From assembly GCA_964412775.1 (NCBI GenBank), contig CAYPPX010000004.1, positions 1-41,272 on the forward strand: a DNA stretch of 41,272 nt, in the 5' to 3' direction. The notes under the pieces were generated by a model. It saw nothing but the letters and a program-made list of their open reading frames with translations. It was not told where the DNA came from and searched no databases. This DNA comes from an uncultured Pseudomonadales bacterium (lineage in GTDB: Bacteria; Patescibacteriota; Microgenomatia; UBA1400; PJMF01). Both the position numbers and the translations under genes were made by a program. Positions 392 to 34,833 of this stretch are shown one piece after another (the stretch's first letter is position 1; every line of letters starts with the position of its first letter).

Positions 392-2227
392 ATGGCAGAG
401 ACTTCTAGAAACTTTATCTACCTCTTACCTGATGTTGCCTATGTTGTGGAGTTAGTAAAAGTCAAGGATAGTGATCTTTTTAAGGTTCGTGATTACCTGC
501 AAATCAATGGAAACTTCATGGACGAAAATGACATCTTGGCTGAAAGTATCAAAAAACTGTCTACTAGAATTCAACCAAAGGATTATGAGTTAGTTTTACC
601 TGATTTTCTTTTTACTAACACTATGGTTAATGTTAAAGAAACAGGCACAGAAAAAGTTTTGGAGTATGTTAATAGGGAGATTATTCCTGATCTAGGTATT
701 TCTGAAAAAACCCATGAGTTAAAAGTTTTTGTATTGAATGAGTTCAAAGGCCAAGCCAGAGTACAACTATCAGCTCTAGAGAAAACTGTTTTGAAACCAC
801 TCACTGATGTTTTTCCAGAGAGTGGCGAGCTAAAAATAAATAATGTTTATCCTTTGAGTTGGGTGACTAAATCTCTAATCTCTCTGGAACCATCAATCAG
901 TGTGGTGCAAATGGGCGCCAAGCTTTATATGGCTCAGCATTATATTGGGATTGACCAAGCAAATGATGCCGAGATTGAAGATGTTGATAAACTAATTGAG
1001 TCAATTAAAACCCTCAAAGGAGCCGAGCCAAGCATCCAAACTGTTTATTTATTGGCTAATGCTTTAGTGGAAAGTAAATTGGGTGATGGTTTGAAAGGGA
1101 CTTTACCGGTCCAACAATTGGCTAAAGATGATGAAGAATCAGAAATGCCATCATATATCAAACAAGTTGCCGAAGCTGCAGTTAAATCAATTGATATTAA
1201 AGAATATCAGATCCCATCTTTTATTTTTTCAGGCGTTGATGGGACTGCCGAAGTTATTGGTGAAACTTTAACCAAAGAAAAACTAACTACTGATGATGTT
1301 AAAGACGAAGTGGTGCTACCCCCTCCAACTGAGCTTGGTACGACTGCTAACGAGGACTTAACCATAGTTAATGAAGAGTTAGACACTGAGCCTGAAAAAA
1401 CAAAAGAAGTTGAAGCTAGTAGTAATGAAGTGGCAGAAACTAAAACCGAAGAAGAGCCTACTGTAGTAGCATCGACCGAAGTTGCCACAGAAAAAGAAAC
1501 TATGAAAATTGAAGACAAAGAACCTACTAAAACAGAACTAGAAACTGTAGCTGAAACAACTACTGAGGTTAAAGAAAAAACAGCTATTTTAAAGACTGAA
1601 GACAAACAAACTTCTGAGGTCAAAGAGGTTGATTTGAGGCAGTTTATGAGTGAAGAAACTACAGAACCAAAAGCTGAGGTTAAAGAAACAGCGGTGGTAG
1701 AAAAAGTGGCAGAACAGTCTAAAAAACAAGTCATCAAGAATGATACTGGGATTAACAACATGGTCAAAATGGTGTTTGTTGCTTTAGTGAGCTTTTTTAT
1801 TACCGTAGGAATTGGGCTGGGTATTGGGCTGGGCTTTTTGACTTTTACTAATAATCAACAAGCCAACAATAACGCCCCTCAAACACCAGTTGCTGAGGTC
1901 TCGCCAACTGCGGAGCCAACCACAGAACCCACTAGTGAGCCAATAGATAGAACCAAATATTCAGTTTTAGTGGTTAATGCAACAACTAAGGCTGGTTATG
2001 CTGGAGAGATTGCAACTGTTTTGGAAGAAGCTGGCTTTGAAGATGTTACGGCAGCCAACGCCAAAGGTGACTACGATGAGGGGAATTTTGTTTTAGCTAA
2101 TACCGAGGAGGCTGAGTTGCTCAAAACCTTGGCTAGTGATACAGATCTAACCTTTAGTTTCTTGGCTGATAAAGAAGTTGAAGATTCAGCCGATAAGTAT
2201 GATTTTGTAATAGTATTAGCTGAGTAG
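392..2227 (+). CDS. Membrane protein: cytoplasmic N-domain, acidic E/T/K-rich low-complexity linker, one TM helix, C-terminal LytR_C-like domain
   Basis: 611-aa ORF. TM segment is MVKMVFVALVSFFITVGIGLGIGLGFLTF. The C-terminus YSVLVVNATTKAGYAGEIATVLEEAGFEDV...YDFVIVL resembles the LytR_C (cell envelope-related C-terminal) domain. The N-domain has FIYLLPDVAYVVEL, faintly PilM/FtsA-like. Confidence 0.75.
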   Translation: MAETSRNFIYLLPDVAYVVELVKVKDSDLFKVRDYLQINGNFMDENDILAESIKKLSTRIQPKDYELVLPDFLFTNTMVNVKETGTEKVLEYVNREIIPDLGISEKTHELKVFVLNEFKGQARVQLSALEKTVLKPLTDVFPESGELKINNVYPLSWVTKSLISLEPSISVVQMGAKLYMAQHYIGIDQANDAEIEDVDKLIESIKTLKGAEPSIQTVYLLANALVESKLGDGLKGTLPVQQLAKDDEESEMPSYIKQVAEAAVKSIDIKEYQIPSFIFSGVDGTAEVIGETLTKEKLTTDDVKDEVVLPPPTELGTTANEDLTIVNEELDTEPEKTKEVEASSNEVAETKTEEEPTVVASTEVATEKETMKIEDKEPTKTELETVAETTTEVKEKTAILKTEDKQTSEVKEVDLRQFMSEETTEPKAEVKETAVVEKVAEQSKKQVIKNDTGINNMVKMVFVALVSFFITVGIGLGIGLGFLTFTNNQQANNNAPQTPVAEVSPTAEPTTEPTSEPIDRTKYSVLVVNATTKAGYAGEIATVLEEAGFEDVTAANAKGDYDEGNFVLANTEEAELLKTLASDTDLTFSFLADKEVEDSADKYDFVIVLAE

Positions 2228-5798: not shown

Positions 5799-8091
<2,293 letters not shown>

Positions 8092-28908: not shown

Positions 28909-29490
28909 TTAATCTAAAGAAACTTTATGGTCTTTAGTTTCTGCATCACTCACTGACATGTGAGCACCAGTACTAGCGGTTTCCAGACCTTTTTCAGCCT
29001 TAAAACCGAATAAACCAGCCACTAAGTTAGATGGAAAAACCACCAATTTTTGGTTAAAGGTTTGGGCGAGGTCAATTACGGTTCTTCTGGCGTAGGTCAA
29101 CTTGTCAGCCGTATCAGTTAGTTCATCCATAAATTTACTGACAGTGCCATCAGCTTTGATTTCTGGATTATCTTCGACTGCAACTTGGATTTTTGGGATT
29201 AATGCTTGCACCGAAGCTAGGGCTTTTTCTAGATCAGCTGGTTTACCAGTTTTATCGGCTGTTTCAGCAGCTTTTCTGGCATCAGTTAACATCTGGAAAA
29301 TACCCTTTTCGTGTTTGAGATAGCCTTTGACAGCAGTTTCCAAGTTTGGAATTAAACTAGCTTGTCTTTTAAGCTGGTTACCAATCTCTTGAATACTAGC
29401 TTGAATTTGAGTTTTCAAGGTTTGTAAAGAGTTGTATAAACCGACTACATAAAAGAAAGCGACGGCAGCAATAACAAGTAAAAATAACAT
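28909..29490 (-). CDS. lemA: LemA family membrane protein
   Basis: N-terminal TM then the YNSLQTLKTQIQASIQEIGNQLKRQASLIPNL pattern typical of LemA. The lemA-htpX pairing is common. Confidence 0.88.
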   Translation of the reverse strand: MLFLLVIAAVAFFYVVGLYNSLQTLKTQIQASIQEIGNQLKRQASLIPNLETAVKGYLKHEKGIFQMLTDARKAAETADKTGKPADLEKALASVQALIPKIQVAVEDNPEIKADGTVSKFMDELTDTADKLTYARRTVIDLAQTFNQKLVVFPSNLVAGLFGFKAEKGLETASTGAHMSVSDAETKDHKVSLD

Positions 29491-29566
29491 AATAAGTCCT
29501 TTGTTTATTAGACTACTGGTGATTAGTATAGCAAATATGGCAAGTTTTTTTCGGTAATATCTTTAC

Positions 29567-29594
29567 TTACAAAAATAACTTTATTTGCTATAAT
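29567..29594 (+). promoter_or_regulatory. Putative tRNA-Asp promoter (extended -10)
   Basis: ttacaa (29567-29572), 16-nt spacer, tgc-tataat (29586-29594). Confidence 0.45.
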
Positions 29595-29626
29595 TGCTTC
29601 TCTTGATCTTTCAAATTAAATAAAGT

Positions 29627-29699
29627 GGGCTCGTGGTGTAGTGGTTAACATGCTTCCCTGTCACGGAAGAGATCGCCAGTTCGATCCTGGTCGAGCTCG
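29627..29699 (+). tRNA. tRNA-Asp (anticodon GUC), CCA not encoded
   Basis: Folded by hand. Acceptor GGGCTCG/CGAGCTC with a G2-U71 wobble; D stem GTGT/ACAT; anticodon stem CTTCC/GGAAG with loop CTGTCAC; T stem GCCAG/CTGGT with loop TTCGATC; discriminator G73. 73 nt. Confidence 0.9.
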
Positions 29700-29700
29700 C
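29683..29700 (+). repeat. Direct repeat copy 1 (tRNA-Asp T-loop to 3' end), att-like
   Basis: gatcctggtcgagctcgc is identical to 29875..29892. Confidence 0.95.
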
Positions 29701-29745
29701 AGCTATAAAAAATCTCCAGAATGGAGATTTTTTTGTAGCTGCGAG
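29696..29745 (+). terminator. 50-nt near-perfect palindrome/terminator overlapping the tRNA 3' end
   Basis: ctcgcagcta-t-aaaaaatctcca-gaa-tggagatttttt-tg-tagctgcgag. About 22 bp with one small internal loop and a T-run in the 3' arm. Confidence 0.75.
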
Positions 29746-29874
29746 TCTCAGAACATGATTAACTTTGGTTCACCGCCAAGTTTGGCGAGCTAGTTTACTT
29801 TAATTAAGCAATAATTCGCCAAACCTGGGTAATGCATGCGAAGCGAGCCTAAGTTGCAGGCGAGCGAAGTCGTA
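29701..29874 (+). mobile_element. Possible miniature or decayed tRNA-integrated element (174 bp between att-like repeats)
   Basis: Bounded by the exact 18-bp direct repeat of the tRNA 3' end. There is no integrase and no ORF. Confidence 0.25.
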
Positions 29875-29892
29875 GATCCTGGTCGAGCTCGC
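29875..29892 (+). repeat. Direct repeat copy 2 (displaced tRNA-Asp 3' fragment, followed by CA completing G-CCA)
   Basis: gatcctggtcgagctcgc is identical to 29683..29700. Here the next bases give ...CTCG-CCA. Confidence 0.95.
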
Positions 29893-29900
29893 CAGATAAT

Positions 29901-29927
29901 AGACCTTAAATAAGGTCTATTTTTTTA
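29901..29927 (+). terminator. Intrinsic terminator
   Basis: agacctta/taaggtct stem followed by a-ttttttt. Confidence 0.75.
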
Positions 29928-29950
29928 ACTTATTTTTAGTCCTATAATAT

Positions 29951-29979
29951 TTGACAATTAGCTTAAATTGATTTATAAT
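29951..29979 (+). promoter_or_regulatory. Consensus sigma70-type promoter of micro-ORF cassette A
   Basis: TTGACA (29951-29956), exactly 17 nt, TATAAT (29974-29979). Preceded by cctataata and followed by gctatt, as in cassette B. Confidence 0.7.
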
Positions 29980-29985
29980 TTAAGG

Positions 29986-30141
29986 CTATTAAAGCTTAGT
30001 ACATGGCGTACTTATGTTTTAAAAACAGCAAGTAATTAATTTATTTGCTTTCTTTTAGAATAAATGGCATTTAATTTAGGTATTAGTAAGACTGATATTT
30101 AAATTGAATGCCATTATCATTCTGAAAGGAGGTGAAATGTA
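29986..30141 (+). promoter_or_regulatory. Structured 5' leader of cassette A
   Basis: 16-bp stem 30063-30078 / 30100-30115 (one G-U) with a 21-nt loop. Extendable with bulges to ctttc(30047-30051)/gaaag (30124-30128), abutting the SD aaggaggtga (30126-30135). Confidence 0.45.
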
Positions 30142-30270
30142 ATGGCTACTTGCGAAGAACATAGCTGGTACACTAAGTCATATTTTCCGCATAGATTTTT
30201 GTTCTGGCGGTATATTTGGCAAAAGTGTACTAAATGCAATGCTTGGAGAATTAAACTATACTCCAAGTAA
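30142..30270 (+). CDS. Micro-ORF A, 42 aa: MATCEEHSWYTKSYFPHRFLFWRYIWQKCTKCNAWRIKLYSK (Cys/His and aromatic rich)
   Basis: Hand translation. Perfect SD aaggaggtga 9 nt upstream of the ATG, own consensus promoter and own terminator. CxxH...CxxC spacing. Below the 60-aa cutoff of the ORF track. Confidence 0.5.
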   Translation: MATCEEHSWYTKSYFPHRFLFWRYIWQKCTKCNAWRIKLYSK

Positions 30271-30306
30271 AAAAAGAGCCGTCTCGGAAGGGACGGCTTT
30301 TCTGTT
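30271..30306 (+). terminator. Intrinsic terminator of cassette A
   Basis: agccgtc (30277-30283) / gacggct (30292-30298), then tttctgtt. Confidence 0.75.
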
Positions 30307-30331
30307 CAATGCTTATTATCCTATAATAATA

Positions 30332-30360
30332 TTGACAAAATAGACATATTTTGATATAAT
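30332..30360 (+). promoter_or_regulatory. Consensus sigma70-type promoter of micro-ORF cassette B
   Basis: TTGACA (30332-30337), exactly 17 nt, TGa-TATAAT (30352-30360). The cctataata box lies at 30320-30328. Confidence 0.7.
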
Positions 30361-30366
30361 TAGTGC

Positions 30367-30580
30367 TATTGATTTAGTGAAATAGGTCAAATTGCTTGAC
30401 TAGATTTTCTACTGAACAATAACAAACTCTTGTTCTTTAAAAAATCCTTTGTTTGTTTAGTATATGTCTTCTTTTGTTAGACAGATAACTTGTCTTGGTT
30501 ATTCATAAGAGTAACTAAAACAAGTTATCTGCTCAGACAGAGATAACGACACATTCTTTACAACGAAGGAGGTGAATAAC
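30367..30580 (+). promoter_or_regulatory. Structured ~210-nt 5' leader of cassette B with mutually exclusive helices
   Basis: 12-bp stem 30482-30493 / 30520-30531 enclosing the gttattc/gagtaac hairpin. gttatct (30524-30530) can alternatively pair with agataac (30541-30547). SD aaggaggtga is at 30566-30575. Confidence 0.45.
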
Positions 30581-30700
30581 ATGGCAATCTACATGATTGT
30601 GATGGAATGGTGCCCGAAAGGACACTGGCACATCATGGTTTACCGCTTATGCCCTGAGCATGGGCGGCACCTCGTTGCCCTCGGCATTCTGCCGATGTAG
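30581..30700 (+). CDS. Micro-ORF B, 39 aa: MAIYMIVMEWCPKGHWHIMVYRLCPEHGRHLVALGILPM (Cys/His rich, GC-rich codons)
   Basis: Hand translation. Perfect SD 8 nt upstream of the ATG, own consensus promoter and terminator. CPxxH...CPEH spacing. About 54% G+C by hand count in an AT-rich genome. Confidence 0.5.
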   Translation: MAIYMIVMEWCPKGHWHIMVYRLCPEHGRHLVALGILPM

Positions 30701-30725
30701 CCGATTCACCCTGACCAAGAGACTT

Positions 30726-30760
30726 GTGCCGCTTCGTAAAGAAGCGGCACATTTCGTTTA
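30726..30760. terminator. Intrinsic terminator of cassette B (also downstream of the convergent NUDIX gene)
   Basis: gtgccgcttc-gtaaa-gaagcggcac (30726-30750), then atttcgttta. Confidence 0.75.
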
Positions 30761-30761
30761 T

Positions 30762-31286
30762 TTAGCCATTCTGATCAATTGTTTCACTTAACACTCTAAC
30801 TAGCTGAGTGTTTTTCCACTCACTATTATTATAGATAATGCCAGGTTTATTATTTAAAACGTGATCAAAGTAATATTTGACCGGTTGAAAAACATTTTCC
30901 AAGTTTTTAGCTTTATTTATCTCTACCCAATGAGCTTCACCTTCAGTAACTGCTGGTTTAATTTTGGGTTCTTCTGAGAGTTCTATATAAAATGAAAATG
31001 CAATATAAATTTCTTGTCTATCTAGATGATGGTGAAAAGCGACTACTTTAAGTTTTATTTCATTTGGTTTGATGGTAACACCAGTTTCTTCTTTGACTTC
31101 TCTGATAGCAGAAGCTAATGGTTCTTCTCCTTCATCAATATGACCACCAGGAATAGACCAAAAACCTGGAAATTTTTCTTTGGTTTCACTGCGCTTAAAC
31201 ATCAGCAGTTTATTTTGGTGAACAATATAAACCTCAGCCACAAAGATAGGCTGATCGACTTCATGGAGTTTTTTGATAGCTGTCAT
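30762..31286 (-). CDS. NUDIX hydrolase
   Basis: Nudix box GGHIDEGEEPLASAIREVKEETG. Confidence 0.88.
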   Translation of the reverse strand: MTAIKKLHEVDQPIFVAEVYIVHQNKLLMFKRSETKEKFPGFWSIPGGHIDEGEEPLASAIREVKEETGVTIKPNEIKLKVVAFHHHLDRQEIYIAFSFYIELSEEPKIKPAVTEGEAHWVEINKAKNLENVFQPVKYYFDHVLNNKPGIIYNNSEWKNTQLVRVLSETIDQNG

Positions 31287-31304
31287 TATGACAGTATAGG
31301 CTTT

Positions 31305-31964
31305 TTAGATTAGTTTATTAACTCCAAAAGTTTCTTTGACCACAAAACCAGTGGGGTTTTTTTCTAGCACAATATAAGCAGTATTATCGATACTGCCATG
31401 TGGTAGTTCTGGGTAATCTGCCCAGTTTAGGTAAATTAAAAAGGTTCTCATGGCAGCTCCATGAGTAACAATTAGATTAGTTTTCTCATTAGTTAAATTA
31501 GCTGTTTTGTCAAAAAATTCTAAAAACCGATCAATAATTGATTGGTCGGTTTCCATATCCAAAACTTGGTGTTTAAAACGTTCTGTTTTTGGCAAATTAT
31601 CCCTTAGTTCTAAGAGTTCTTTTAATTCCTGATGAAAATCGCTTATTTTTCGGCCCTCATAACTGCCTAGGTACATTTCTCTTAAGAGTTTGTCTGCTTG
31701 GACTGTTAAATTATCTCTGGTTTTAGTAATTATTTGGGCTGTTTTGTAGGCTCTTTTGAGATCTGAAGAAAAAACGTTATCAAATTTTATATCACCTAAT
31801 TTTTTGCTTACCATTTTTGCTTGTTCAATACCATTCTCATTTAGTTCAATATCAATATGGCCTTGAATGATTTTTTGGGCGTTGTAGGGAGTTTCACCGT
31901 GTCTAACTAGATAAAATAAGGTTGGTGTTGTCATAACAAGTTTTGATTTTACCATTTTTGCCAT
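31305..31964 (-). CDS. Histidine phosphatase (phosphoglycerate mutase) family protein
   Basis: LVRHGETPYN catalytic RHG motif and a later THGAAMR. The true start may be an internal Met (e.g. 31934). Confidence 0.85.
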   Translation of the reverse strand: MAKMVKSKLVMTTPTLFYLVRHGETPYNAQKIIQGHIDIELNENGIEQAKMVSKKLGDIKFDNVFSSDLKRAYKTAQIITKTRDNLTVQADKLLREMYLGSYEGRKISDFHQELKELLELRDNLPKTERFKHQVLDMETDQSIIDRFLEFFDKTANLTNEKTNLIVTHGAAMRTFLIYLNWADYPELPHGSIDNTAYIVLEKNPTGFVVKETFGVNKLI

Positions 31965-31979
31965 TGATTATTATCTCTG

Positions 31980-31999
31980 GATCTTGGTATAACAAGATC
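31980..31999. promoter_or_regulatory. 7-6-7 palindrome centred on a TGgTATAAC extended -10 in a divergent intergenic region
   Basis: gatcttg-gtataa-caagatc, read directly. Confidence 0.4.
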
Positions 32000-32028
32000 T
32001 CAACAGAAAAAGAAAGGAAGTAATTACA

Positions 32029-32505
32029 ATGTCTGATGATCAAATCAAAAGCGCTGAACAATTGGCGAAGGAGGCTCTAGCAGAAGCCGATGCTGAAGTT
32101 GAGAGTTCAAACAAAGTCGCTGAAACTTTGGGAACATTGCAAAACTTAATTGAGCGTCACGCGCTGAATTTAGAGGAAATTCGCAAACAAATTAAAGAAA
32201 CTAATGAAAGTTTAAGGAGTGTGTTTGAAAATGACACAACTCTTTCTACTGCTCAGGAAGAAGCCCAAGCAGTGACTAGTAAAGTTAAGGAAAGAAGAAG
32301 TCAGTTACAATCTGATCCTCAAGTGACTTCCTTAAAAATCAAGGTTGGGGAACTTAAGGAGCAACAAAAAGAACTAGAAGAAACTTTGAGTAATCATTTG
32401 ATTAATTATCATACTTTGACCAACTCTAAAAGTTTTGATACCAGTGATGGTGATCAATGGGATTTTTCTATTAGAGCCAAAATTAGACCACGTGGTAAAA
32501 AATAA
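32029..32505 (+). CDS. Hypothetical coiled-coil protein
   Basis: 158-aa ORF with SD gaaaggaag. Charged heptad-like sequence and a basic C-terminus. Followed by a strong terminator. Confidence 0.7.
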   Translation: MSDDQIKSAEQLAKEALAEADAEVESSNKVAETLGTLQNLIERHALNLEEIRKQIKETNESLRSVFENDTTLSTAQEEAQAVTSKVKERRSQLQSDPQVTSLKIKVGELKEQQKELEETLSNHLINYHTLTNSKSFDTSDGDQWDFSIRAKIRPRGKK

Positions 32506-32574: not shown

Positions 32575-32838
32575 TTAGGTCTTACCTAACTTTTGGTTGA
32601 TCCGAGCCAAAGCTGCTGGAGAAACGTTTTTCATTTTCTTCAAGGAGCGAGCTCTTCTTTTTAAACGGTTATCGTTAGCAGTTTTTTCAGCCTTAATTTT
32701 TGAAGGTTTTCTGAAGTAACGTCTATCTTTAACAATTTGCACGACACCAGTAGCAGCGACAGCTTTTTTGAATTTACGAATCAAATCATTAGTCGATTCG
32801 CTTTTCTTAGCTTTAATTACGATTGCCATGTTACTCAC
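32575..32838 (-). CDS. rpsU: 30S ribosomal protein S21
   Basis: LIRKFKKAVAATGVVQIVKDRRYFRKPSKIKAEK matches the S21 pattern. Very basic, 87 aa. SD is gaggaggtga. Confidence 0.85.
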   Translation of the reverse strand: MSNMAIVIKAKKSESTNDLIRKFKKAVAATGVVQIVKDRRYFRKPSKIKAEKTANDNRLKRRARSLKKMKNVSPAALARINQKLGKT

Positions 32839-32925
32839 CTCCTCTCCAATTTAAATTAATTATTACAGGTTAGTATGCGGTAAGAGCTTGAATTATACAC
32901 TAGTCTGCCAGATATTACAGGTTGA

Positions 32926-34500: not shown

Positions 34501-34833
34501 TTATTTCTTGATTAAAGTAGAACCAATAGTTTTTAAAATCCACCAAATAATTTTGAATGGTAAAGTCAGTAATTGCCAAACTAGTGGCTCACGATCATCT
34601 TCTCCTCTTACCCAGGTAGAAATGACTAAATATCTATTATTCTCAATAGGTGTAGCAACCACGTGAACTTTGCGACTGGCAATAGTTCTAATGAATTTAT
34701 AGTTATCTTGGTTATGGTAAGTTTTATCTGGAAAACTAATGGTTTGATAAACCATGTCTTTGGTTAGTGAACGGTCTTGGACTCGCTCACCGGCGTGTTT
34801 GGTAAAAACTAAGTTTTTATAAGTTTCGCCCAT
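34501..34833 (-). CDS. DUF4258-like small protein with a C-terminal hydrophobic tail
   Basis: FTKHAGERVQDRSLTKDMVYQTI...VHVVATP...YLVISTWV resembles the DUF4258 pattern. The C-terminal VWQLLTLPFKIIWWILKTIGSTLI is TM-like. Confidence 0.6.
   Translation of the reverse strand: MGETYKNLVFTKHAGERVQDRSLTKDMVYQTISFPDKTYHNQDNYKFIRTIASRKVHVVATPIENNRYLVISTWVRGEDDREPLVWQLLTLPFKIIWWILKTIGSTLIKK

Follow-up and report, generated by a model that had tools for sequence, protein, structure and literature searches.

Small genes whose transcripts or products resemble those described here are known from several systems. The mRNAs of type I toxins (hok/sok, tisB/istR, aapA1/IsoA1) are folded, monocistronic small-ORF transcripts in which the SD is sequestered and which undergo processing or refolding before translation. 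RNase III-activated leaders, such as the E. coli adhE 5' UTR and the phage T7/lambda early mRNAs, carry a duplex of at least 20 bp adjoining an occluded ribosome-binding site (RBS), and to our knowledge they are without a conserved 5' domain of the kind reported below (an AUUGC loop and AACAAAAACTTGTTCTTTAA). In RNA thermometers (fourU/ROSE-like), a short, weak U-rich:SD helix melts at physiological temperatures. Polymorphic peptide loci, i.e. the comC, agrD, and comX pherotype genes and bacteriocin alleles, have diverged alleles of ~40 codons between near-identical flanks within one species. At the protein level, haloarchaeal Brz and the Haloferax mu-proteins are C(P)XCG zinc-finger micro-proteins of <50-70 aa that are encoded by stand-alone genes and in which two CPXCG pairs provide four Cys ligands in one site (PMC2253796, PMC10117724). 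For the micro-ORF described here, ORF B, these C(P)XCG micro-proteins are the closest protein analogy, with a ligand pattern that differs.

The window, by which we mean the whole 41-kb (41,272-nt) stretch of DNA that was analysed, has a mean GC content of 36.6% (0.366, sd 0.059 in sliding windows). A 1.27-kb gap between LemA (28909-29490, minus strand) and a NUDIX gene (30762-31286, minus strand) contains tRNA-Asp and two tandem stand-alone units on the plus strand, the sister cassette unit A and unit B with ORF B (Table 1); the gene neighbours are LemA, HtpX, NUDIX, His_Phos, bS21, and HIT. The LemA-tRNA-Asp synteny is kept in ~50 related loci, and ARAGORN detected no tmRNA at the locus. The first-pass annotation had guessed at a Saccharibacteria host; because the flanking HtpX protein is 85-87% identical to that of Patescibacteria MAGs labelled Pacebacteria, Paceibacterota, or Microgenomates, this guess was wrong, and the flanking genes place the host among the Patescibacteria of Microgenomates/Pacebacteria type.

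Table 1 Features of the tRNA-Asp locus with units A and B (positions in the window)
Feature	Position	Strand	Remarks
tRNA-Asp (GTC)	29627..29700	+	ARAGORN and Rfam; landmark of the locus
Sister cassette, unit A	29941..30300	+	same promoter motif at 29941-29979; whole-unit fold z = -13.3
Unit A leader, 160 nt	upstream of ORF A	+	25-bp hairpin 30066-30112; paired SD
ORF A, 42 aa, C-H...CxxC	30142-30270	+	conserved in L002 and L003
Unit A bidirectional terminator	30277-30300		
Unit B promoter	30320..30360	+	CCTATAA-N-TTGA 30320-30335; -35 TTGACA 30332-30337; extended -10 TGATATAAT 30352-30360
Unit B structured leader, ~215-220 nt	30361..30580	+	start placed from the -10
Leader P1 domain	30364-30423	+	inner hairpin 30385-30401; loop AUUGC 30391-30395
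Leader conserved motif AACAAACTCTTGTTCTTTAA	30421-30442	+	regex matches in related units
U/C-rich anti-SD	30445-30456	+	
Long hairpin P3	30472-30542	+	
SD AAGGAGG	30566-30572	+	
ORF B, 39-aa micro-protein MAIYMIVMEWCPKGHWHIMVYRLCPEHGRHLVALGILPM	30581..30700	+	ATG 30581, TAG 30698-30700; GC 54%, GC3 0.72
3' UTR block ATTCACC..., terminator hairpin 30725-30751, U tract	30701..30761	+	common to the convergent NUDIX gene (30762-31286, -)

The coordinates and the 39-aa translation of ORF B proved to be exactly as first described. A HMMER search of 1.84 billion representative proteins returned one true relative, P0001 (40 aa, 59% identity over the full length, E 2.3e-8); the other three matches below E 0.001 in this set were translated tandem repeats. 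P0001 is encoded on the JGI contig L088, on which LemA, tRNA-Asp, promoter, leader, ORF, terminator, and the NUDIX gene follow in this order. Between the window and L088, 10 codons of ORF B are identical, 13 differ by synonymous changes only, and 16 differ non-synonymously, with 23 residues kept (NG86: pS 0.78, saturated; dN 0.36). Among the kept positions are C11, G14, H15, H17, C24, P25, H27, G28, H30, and an LVALG stretch, i.e. all six Cys/His and both turn glycines, in agreement with the initial suggestion that the Cys/His residues matter. The ORF in run X8 (landfill, diverged leader) starts with ATG GCG ATT TAC GTG ATC TAC TTG, giving MAIYVIYL, which matches L088/P0001. A more distant relative is present in L003 (Pacebacteria CG2_30_36_39), where the last of three cassettes after tRNA-Asp fills the ORF B slot with a 32-aa protein, MLIKMIIVRGFICPLCGEFHVTSIEVVEMIAL (7588-7683), behind a homologous leader end (...ACAAAACGAAGGAGGTGA); this ORF fell below the cut-off of the GC-based screen and was detected by the GC3-based screen. 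In a MAFFT alignment, ICPLCGEFHV of L003 aligned to LCPEHGR-HLV of the window, with M1, I3, I6, C-P, G, and H in register and C-P, G, and H invariant; this short motif, the position, and the homology of the leaders are the grounds for relating the two proteins (36% identity over 32 aa). All three relatives share C24-P25, G28, and H30 and have either His or Cys at position 27, the change of His27 to Cys in L003 being a ligand-for-ligand swap; these conservation statistics draw on few sequences (two full orthologues, one distant relative, and one partial allele). Moreover, the reading frame is open in three species and follows a strong SD at optimal spacing, and the SD/start region is identical at 22 of 23 positions to the translation-initiation region of rpsU (the bS21 gene). 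Judged from these comparisons, ORF B is shown to be a coding gene for a conserved micro-protein, and the strict third-position pattern described below shows that its protein sequence is constrained too.

P0001 is the single orthologue on record and is annotated as 'hypothetical protein'. No Pfam/NCBIfam profile matched ORF B or ORF A at E<=10, no sequence relative of ORF B was found in the PDB, exact look-ups of the 39-aa and 42-aa products retrieved no called gene, and neither micro-ORF is called on the window's own Logan contig. In word-based searches of 5.8 billion protein clusters, the queries ORF B (in a 42-aa form), ORF A, and P0001 retrieved at most themselves; this outcome is uninformative because homologues of ORF A exist uncalled in L002 and L003. 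ORF B gave no match in tblastn against 81 loci, JGI loci anchored on the NUDIX gene (53-57% identity) contained no unit B, and RNA-labelled runs had even, low coverage at the locus, like DNA, with no expression signal. A search of the literature on small hypervariable ORFs in CPR yielded nothing pertinent. The ORF B family is a lineage-restricted, unannotated micro-protein family with conserved Cys/His as putative ligands.

The composition of ORF B sets it apart from the rest of the window. The hand count of 65 G+C in 120 nt made at the outset was correct (54.2%). The flanks have a GC of 0.25-0.35 in 100-nt windows, compared with 0.57-0.61 at 30600-30750, and ORF B is the top GC peak of the 41-kb window at 100, 120, and 150 nt (0.61, 0.59, and 0.57, respectively; ~4 sd). 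GC1/GC2/GC3 are.56/.36/.72 in ORF B vs.49/.34/.26 in the window genes (n=38). For GC3 specifically, the 0.72 of ORF B compares with 0.264 +/- 0.037 in these 38 genes, of which the highest has 0.345, and it exceeds the maximum of 0.55 among 1108 in-gene 120-nt windows. A CAI-like index of 0.35 for ORF B lies below that of every one of the 1108 windows (minimum 0.46). When the ORF B peptide was recoded with host codon frequencies, GC was 0.417 +/- 0.023 with a maximum of 0.504 in 20000 draws, vs 0.547 observed, and the period-3 GC asymmetry of the ORF was significant (permutation P = 0.0056). Windowed GC and codon adaptation thus document that the jump in GC and codon usage noted in the first-pass annotation is real and stronger than claimed there, and the GC excess of ORF B sits in silent third codon positions.

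Two origins had been proposed for this jump, recent acquisition from a GC-richer donor and selection for RNA structure within the ORF; the former is not supported and the latter has only moderate support. The GC3 of the B-slot ORFs is.72,.70, and.72 in the window, L088, and L003, respectively (GC2 0.28-0.36), while the long ORFs of the same three genomes have an average GC3 of 0.26-0.27; for L003, the GC of the B-slot ORF is 0.479 vs 0.343 +/- 0.026 expected. The L088 and L003 orthologues, each from an AT-rich genome, occupy the same slot behind homologous leaders and have a GC3 of 0.70-0.72 as well. Because the NUDIX gene has a dS of ~2.5 between the window and L088 and a GC3 at AT equilibrium (0.24-0.31), the silent sites of the neighbourhood have turned over, ORF B excepted, and because the three orthologues agree in GC3 although dS is saturated, a recent acquisition is not supported. 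The tail of a second allele described below (GGC GTG CTC ATC AGC GTC GAG TAA) has G/C at the third position in 7/7 sense codons. Among the cassette cargo ORFs compared, GC3s is.66-.69 in the B family vs.28-.45 in the others, indicating that extreme GC3 is specific to the B family. Taken together, these comparisons indicate that the silent-site GC of ORF B is maintained and does not reflect foreign ancestry. Because third-position GC is kept while the neighbours have equilibrated to AT, selection would act on the RNA or the codons atop selection on the peptide. For the force on the silent sites, RNA stability or structure is at present the strongest candidate, and decoding kinetics is an alternative. 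The ORF alone folds with z-scores of -2.45, -1.77, and -3.26 in the three B-slot ORFs relative to shuffles (-1.8 to -3.3), and selection for RNA structure within ORF B is moderately supported. The stability of a stored mRNA is by itself insufficient to account for a GC3 confined to the B family because the masked-RBS design is also found in the sister cassettes, whose GC3 is not extreme.

Units A and B have a common architecture. Both have a perfect TTGACA-17-TATAAT promoter with CCTATAA ahead of it (a 12/12 consensus match in unit B; family form TCCTATAA-N-TTGACA), a long leader, AAGGAGGTGA at optimal ATG spacing, a micro-ORF of 39-42 codons, and an intrinsic terminator. The presence of a consensus sigma-70 promoter (30332-30360), SD, and terminator (30725-30751) bears out the earlier description of promoter and leader as native in style. 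CCTATAA-N(1-6)-TTGA occurs in the window at the two unit promoters only, vs 0.3 expected, and 10 times in 1.29 Mb of window and related loci (a count in which the window, W, is the same sequence as L001), each time just downstream of tRNA-Asp and heading a cassette; cassettes of the family lie just 3' of tRNA-Asp in every related genome where they were found. Their leaders measure 150-216 nt and their cargo ORFs 31, 38-42, 39-40, 76, and 173 aa. The 173-aa cargo of L003 was considered as a macro domain, for which Pfam gave no support. The comparison with L002 independently bears out ORF A, which has a dN of 0.03 and a dS of 0.53 relative to L002, with an AGC to TCT change at a Ser codon and an in-frame indel, and is 62% identical to its L003 counterpart. 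The terminator hairpin of unit B is 100% paired in L088, L003, and L005, with compensatory changes in 6/10 pairs (four species). The comparison of these loci indicates that ORF B is cargo of a cassette family located 3' of tRNA-Asp in Microgenomates/Pacebacteria-like genomes.

The leader of unit B is highly structured in predictions. The unit B transcript folds with z = -10.5 relative to dinucleotide shuffles and the leader alone with z = -6.75, and the SD and AUG of ORF B are predicted to pair with 30428-30456. Leaders align across units and have a 5' two-tier hairpin with an inner 5-bp stem closing an (A/U)UUGC loop. For this inner hairpin (P1b), a loop-anchored alignment of nine units has 97.8% of cells paired and compensatory changes in 5/5 pairs, with 0/500 shuffles as good and slid controls reaching at most 51%, in an alignment that was anchored by hand and somewhat favours the structure. 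The leaders also share the motif AACAAA(A/C)(A/T)CTTG(T/C)TCTTTAA, i.e. AACAAA(A/C)(A/T)CTTGTTCTTTAA. A near-perfect helix of 21-34 bp lies ahead of the SD in 8/9 units, its sequence unrelated between units; in the exception, L010, the longest helix is the 5' domain. This hairpin is enclosed by the anti-SD:SD helix, and by prediction only, the SD is paired in the MFE structure of 8/9 family leaders (leader MFE -51 to -69 kcal/mol). The only Rfam family that passed the gathering score was tRNA-Asp, and relaxing the cut-off to E<=10 for 29450-30850 brought up no relevant match at the leader or ORF B; JGI metagenome contigs contained no match to a 24-mer taken from the leader. Based on these models, the leader appears to hide the ribosome-binding site of ORF B. 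Compared with RNA thermometers, the anti-SD is U/C-rich with G-U pairs, but its helix is stacked on the 21-34 bp hairpin, and the predicted anti-SD:SD helix is probably too stable for a fourU/ROSE-like thermometer. Unit B resembles type I toxin mRNAs in being a monocistronic small-ORF unit that is highly folded, with the SD sequestered in our predictions, and it resembles RNase III-activated leaders in having a long near-perfect 5' UTR duplex beside a predicted occluded RBS, where cleavage would be the activating step. Unit B is not assigned to either class: there is no evident antisense RNA, the predicted fold of the peptide is beta and not a transmembrane helix, and cleavage of the duplex is a proposed step.

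The locus is present in populations from sludge, wastewater, rock, groundwater, and aquatic samples, and its B slot varies at the strain level. In X3, X5, and X11, a different SD-ATG-ORF segment lies between a leader that matches that of the window at ~97% identity up to 30554 and a near-identical NUDIX gene; this allele 2 segment opens with CTCAACGCAAAGGAGGTGAAATAAG ATG GA, thus bringing an SD and ATG of its own, and measures 138 nt in X3 vs 149 nt in the window. A contig of X16 ends in ...GTC GAG TAA GACGC ahead of the conserved ATTCACC block at 30704, and should X16 carry allele 2 as well, the stretch from ATG to TAA would be 108 nt long and in frame. Between the window and L088, identity is 58% in the ORF vs 75% in the leader and 74% in the 3' UTR plus terminator; the ORF thus evolves fastest and is swapped as a whole. 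Units A and B are both missing from L005 and from a second population of the source sample, which nevertheless retain both terminator blocks, and in L002 an ABC transporter comes after unit A, so that the slot is a variable one. As aligned here, these contigs show ORF-precise allele replacement between strains. A diversity-generating retroelement target was rejected: the segment occurs once in the window, and the alleles share <80% identity and have unequal lengths (138 vs 149 nt; 134 vs 129 nt). With deeply diverged ~40-codon alleles between nearly identical flanks, ORF B is similar to pherotype and bacteriocin loci; unlike them, it has no adjacent cognate receptor, processing, or immunity gene and no leader-peptide/core layout. 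A RiPP precursor or bacteriocin locus was rejected as well, the neighbours being without maturation, export, and immunity genes and the whole ORF varying, including the N-terminus of allele 2.

AF2 modeled ORF B from the single sequence with a pLDDT of 94.8 (vs 73.5 for ORF A) and strands at residues 3-11, 15-24, and 28-38 without a helix. The peptide is thus predicted to be a three-stranded beta-meander that is strongly hydrophobic and Cys/His-rich. The turns of the model lie at C-P-K-G and C-P-E-H, and two Cys/His clusters are found at opposite sheet ends, without a classical single tetrahedral site in the monomer. In this model, the two C/H/H triads probably bind metal, perhaps across a dimer; candidate ligands number 6 in the window and L088 and 3 in L003. 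Foldseek against the PDB returned no significant structural neighbour of the model. The only whole-chain neighbours of similar size were the laterosporulins 4ozk, 6lwy, and 6lwz (TM 0.56-0.61, E ~0.6, not significant); ORF B, although predicted to be a small all-beta peptide like these leaderless bacteriocins, is not homologous to them, has no Cys pairs that form disulfides, and is not accompanied by genes for export or immunity. With the C(P)XCG micro-proteins, ORF B shares a small stand-alone gene and a Cys-Pro-x-Cys/His-Gly turn followed by a beta strand, the L003 relative having a literal CPLCG where the window protein has CPEHG at the aligned position. It differs from them in its two C/H/H triads with mostly His as putative ligands and in its first motif, which is C-x3-H-x-H with a Pro that is not conserved, unlike a second CPXCG knuckle; moreover, there is no sequence homology, and ORF B is bacterial (CPR), not archaeal.

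We considered several alternative explanations for the unusual composition. An assembly chimera or a contaminating cluster of GC-rich reads was suspected because the composition shifts abruptly within ~150 nt; this explanation is already refuted, as an independent Logan contig of SRR5011273 with 100% identity over 29856-32460 spans both suspected junctions, a contig of run X6 (rock metagenome, different study) is 100% identical over 30559-30800, and the JGI contig L088 has the orthologous gene arrangement. Recent horizontal transfer of the ORF from a donor of higher GC content (for example a host bacterium) to a position behind the native promoter and leader, with a GC3 that has not decayed, would be in keeping with the.56/.36/.72 pattern, which resembles coding sequence from a ~55-62% GC genome, with the variable slot beside a tRNA gene and an att-like repeat close by, and with the swapping of the ORF among strains. 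We nevertheless regard it as quite unlikely: the L088 and L003 orthologues have the same slot and GC3 at saturated silent sites beside an AT-equilibrated NUDIX gene, ORF-precise replacement requires AT-rich CPR flanks as homology arms, and no donor homologue was found by blastn against phages (SD region only) and plasmids (nothing), by two pattern scans of viral contigs (nothing similar to ORF B), or, for GC-rich genomes, among the 1.84 billion representative proteins. As a variant, ORF B might conceivably be an old import from a very-high-GC3 donor that is still decaying, the comparison covering two or three sequences. An island inserted at the tRNA gene was rejected because the three orthologues have the same GC3 at saturated dS, no donor homologue turned up in these searches, and the att-like direct repeat of the tRNA 3' end brackets 29701-29874 instead, a segment without ORF B. 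Alternatively, in GC-biased gene conversion, recombination at a hotspot would push silent sites to G/C without selection on RNA. The ORF is demonstrably exchanged among strains and divergence at the locus is mosaic (dS of 0.32 for LemA vs 2.5 for NUDIX), as such a process would have it; the leader (GC 0.31), terminator, and NUDIX gene (GC3 0.24-0.31) are AT-rich despite being included in the same exchanges, the GC effect is bounded sharply by the start and stop codons, and gene conversion effects reported in bacteria are far smaller than the GC excess of ORF B, which makes this explanation very unlikely.

Two further alternatives concern the function of unit B. In AT-rich genomes, islands of high GC usually correspond to structural RNAs, and both the folding of the transcript far beyond shuffles and the uniformly negative ORF-only z-scores would be expected if the GC-rich segment were a domain of a non-coding RNA and the open frame fortuitous. 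This is highly improbable given that the GC excess is limited to the third positions of the frame (GC2 0.36), that 13 codons changed synonymously while 23 residues including all Cys/His were kept, that the frame is open in three species behind a strong SD at optimal spacing, and that there is no Rfam match even at E<=10. A type I toxin-like module, in which a toxic peptide is made from an RBS-masked mRNA activated by processing and strain diversity reflects conflict, would account for a stand-alone monocistronic unit with a strong promoter, for the compactly folded transcript (z = -10.5) with its SD predicted to be sequestered, for a small and hydrophobic peptide, and for allelic diversity in a variable slot next to a tRNA gene. 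However, the minus strand gave no sign of an antisense promoter or sRNA, a promoter scan of 30300-30800 at a threshold of 9/12 finding no promoter-like site (a scan of the sequence alone and as such a weak negative), the predicted beta-sheet is not the single transmembrane helix of typical type I toxins, the Cys/His conservation is atypical, and the same leader type drives ORFs of 76 and 173 aa; on balance, we consider a toxin module unlikely.

The explanation that we favor, and that we hold to be reasonably probable as a whole, is that ORF B is a micro-protein gene carried as cassette cargo, with a masked RBS and silent GC under selection. According to this proposal, the primary transcript of unit B would be a compact, stable mRNA in which the U/C-rich anti-SD strand pairs with the SD and start region across the 21-34 bp hairpin, and translation of ORF B would require opening of the anti-SD:SD helix. 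The likeliest trigger would be an RNase specific for double strands that cuts the long duplex (RNase III type, suggested purely by the helix length) or a factor that binds the conserved 5' domain. Selection on the RNA or codons of ORF B might serve mRNA stability or structure, or decoding kinetics. More tentatively, and with considerably less confidence, we suggest that these elements jointly represent an undescribed cis-regulatory RNA class that gates a micro-protein regulon, with a polymorphic metal-binding B peptide encoded by a dual-code mRNA. The elements of such a class may be the P1 hairpin with its AUUGC loop, the AACAAAAACUUGUUCUUUAA motif, and the long processing hairpin clamping the anti-SD:SD helix, and the B-slot mRNA may carry a dual code of peptide sequence plus enforced silent-site G/C. 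The B-slot peptide might be a conflict or signalling peptide in an episymbiotic lifestyle.

In three AT-rich genomes, a gene of 32-40 codons has ~70% silent G/C vs ~26% in its neighbours, which makes it a clean case of synonymous-site selection and a warning that a 'foreign-looking' composition is not always horizontal transfer. In addition, replacement of exactly the ORF between strains suggests that the peptide is under selection at the population level. Small proteins of CPR and their regulation are almost unknown, and the reduced genomes of these bacteria leave little non-essential sequence; this locus is a concrete, testable case of a CPR micro-protein family overlooked by gene callers.

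ORF A, the 42-aa product of unit A, is a second uncalled micro-protein in the tandem cassettes between tRNA-Asp and the NUDIX gene (see table). In the comparison with the related locus L002, its dN was 0.03 and its dS 0.53; purifying selection on ORF A is clear. Identity in locus L003 is 62%, the C, H and CxxC residues are conserved, and the RNA of ORF A itself is strongly folded (z = -4.4). We also observed a second form of the locus in metagenome runs X1 (the source sample) and X2, in which AGGT stands in place of 29893-30270, i.e. the whole of unit A. The depth of this form is approximately that of the main form and its structure agrees with the arrangement of MAG L005; it stems either from a relative that lives alongside or from a polymorphic deletion.

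Upstream of unit A, the 3' end of tRNA-Asp is repeated exactly 192 nt downstream. The 174-nt segment between the two copies is GC-richer, and it is present in L005 and absent from L002 and L088 (the JGI contig with the ORF B orthologue). The arrangement looks like an att-type scar left behind by an integrated element since lost. Because divergence between the window and L088 is mosaic, with a dS of 0.32 for the LemA N-terminus and of ~2.5 for the NUDIX C-terminus, the comparison implies a recombination boundary somewhere from the tRNA to ORF B.

Features and compared stretches (window positions unless a locus is named)
Feature	Position	Strand	Remark
Direct repeat GATCCTGGTCGAGCTCGC	29683-29700 and 29875-29892		Last 18 nt of tRNA-Asp; exact second copy
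Unit A-less arrangement	29892/30271 junction; L005 8975-9040		Runs X1, X2
ORF A, MATCEEHSWYTKSYFPHRFLFWRYIWQKCTKCNAWRIKLYSK	30142-30270	+	
bS21 translation-initiation region, AGGAGGTGAGTAACATGGCAATC	32821-32843	-	Compared with ORF B 30567-30589 (+)
110-aa ORF	34501-34833	-	DUF4258, E 4e-7
Three tandem cassettes	L003 7500-9150	-	Downstream of tRNA-Asp
Mosaic divergence	28909-29490 (LemA) vs 30762-31286 (NUDIX); L088 1-147 vs 838-1032		

The initiation regions of ORF B and the bS21 gene are identical at 22 of 23 nt, and both proteins begin with MAI. Elsewhere in the window, the DUF4258-matching ORF adjoins a class II aminoacyl-tRNA synthetase gene.

Cassettes at other loci carry varied cargo: a 38-aa ORF A homologue, a 173-aa ORF (no match in Pfam) and a 32-aa ORF at the ORF B position in L003, and single cassettes with cargoes of 76 aa in L010 and 31 aa (MIVTCITIEVVSLGGGWYLIRRIKSYRYIAL) in L019. 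Several other contigs in runs X2, X8 and X10 are ~85% alike to the unit B promoter block (30326-30361) and then run into unrelated sequence, from which we infer that this promoter type is in use at additional, unseen loci.
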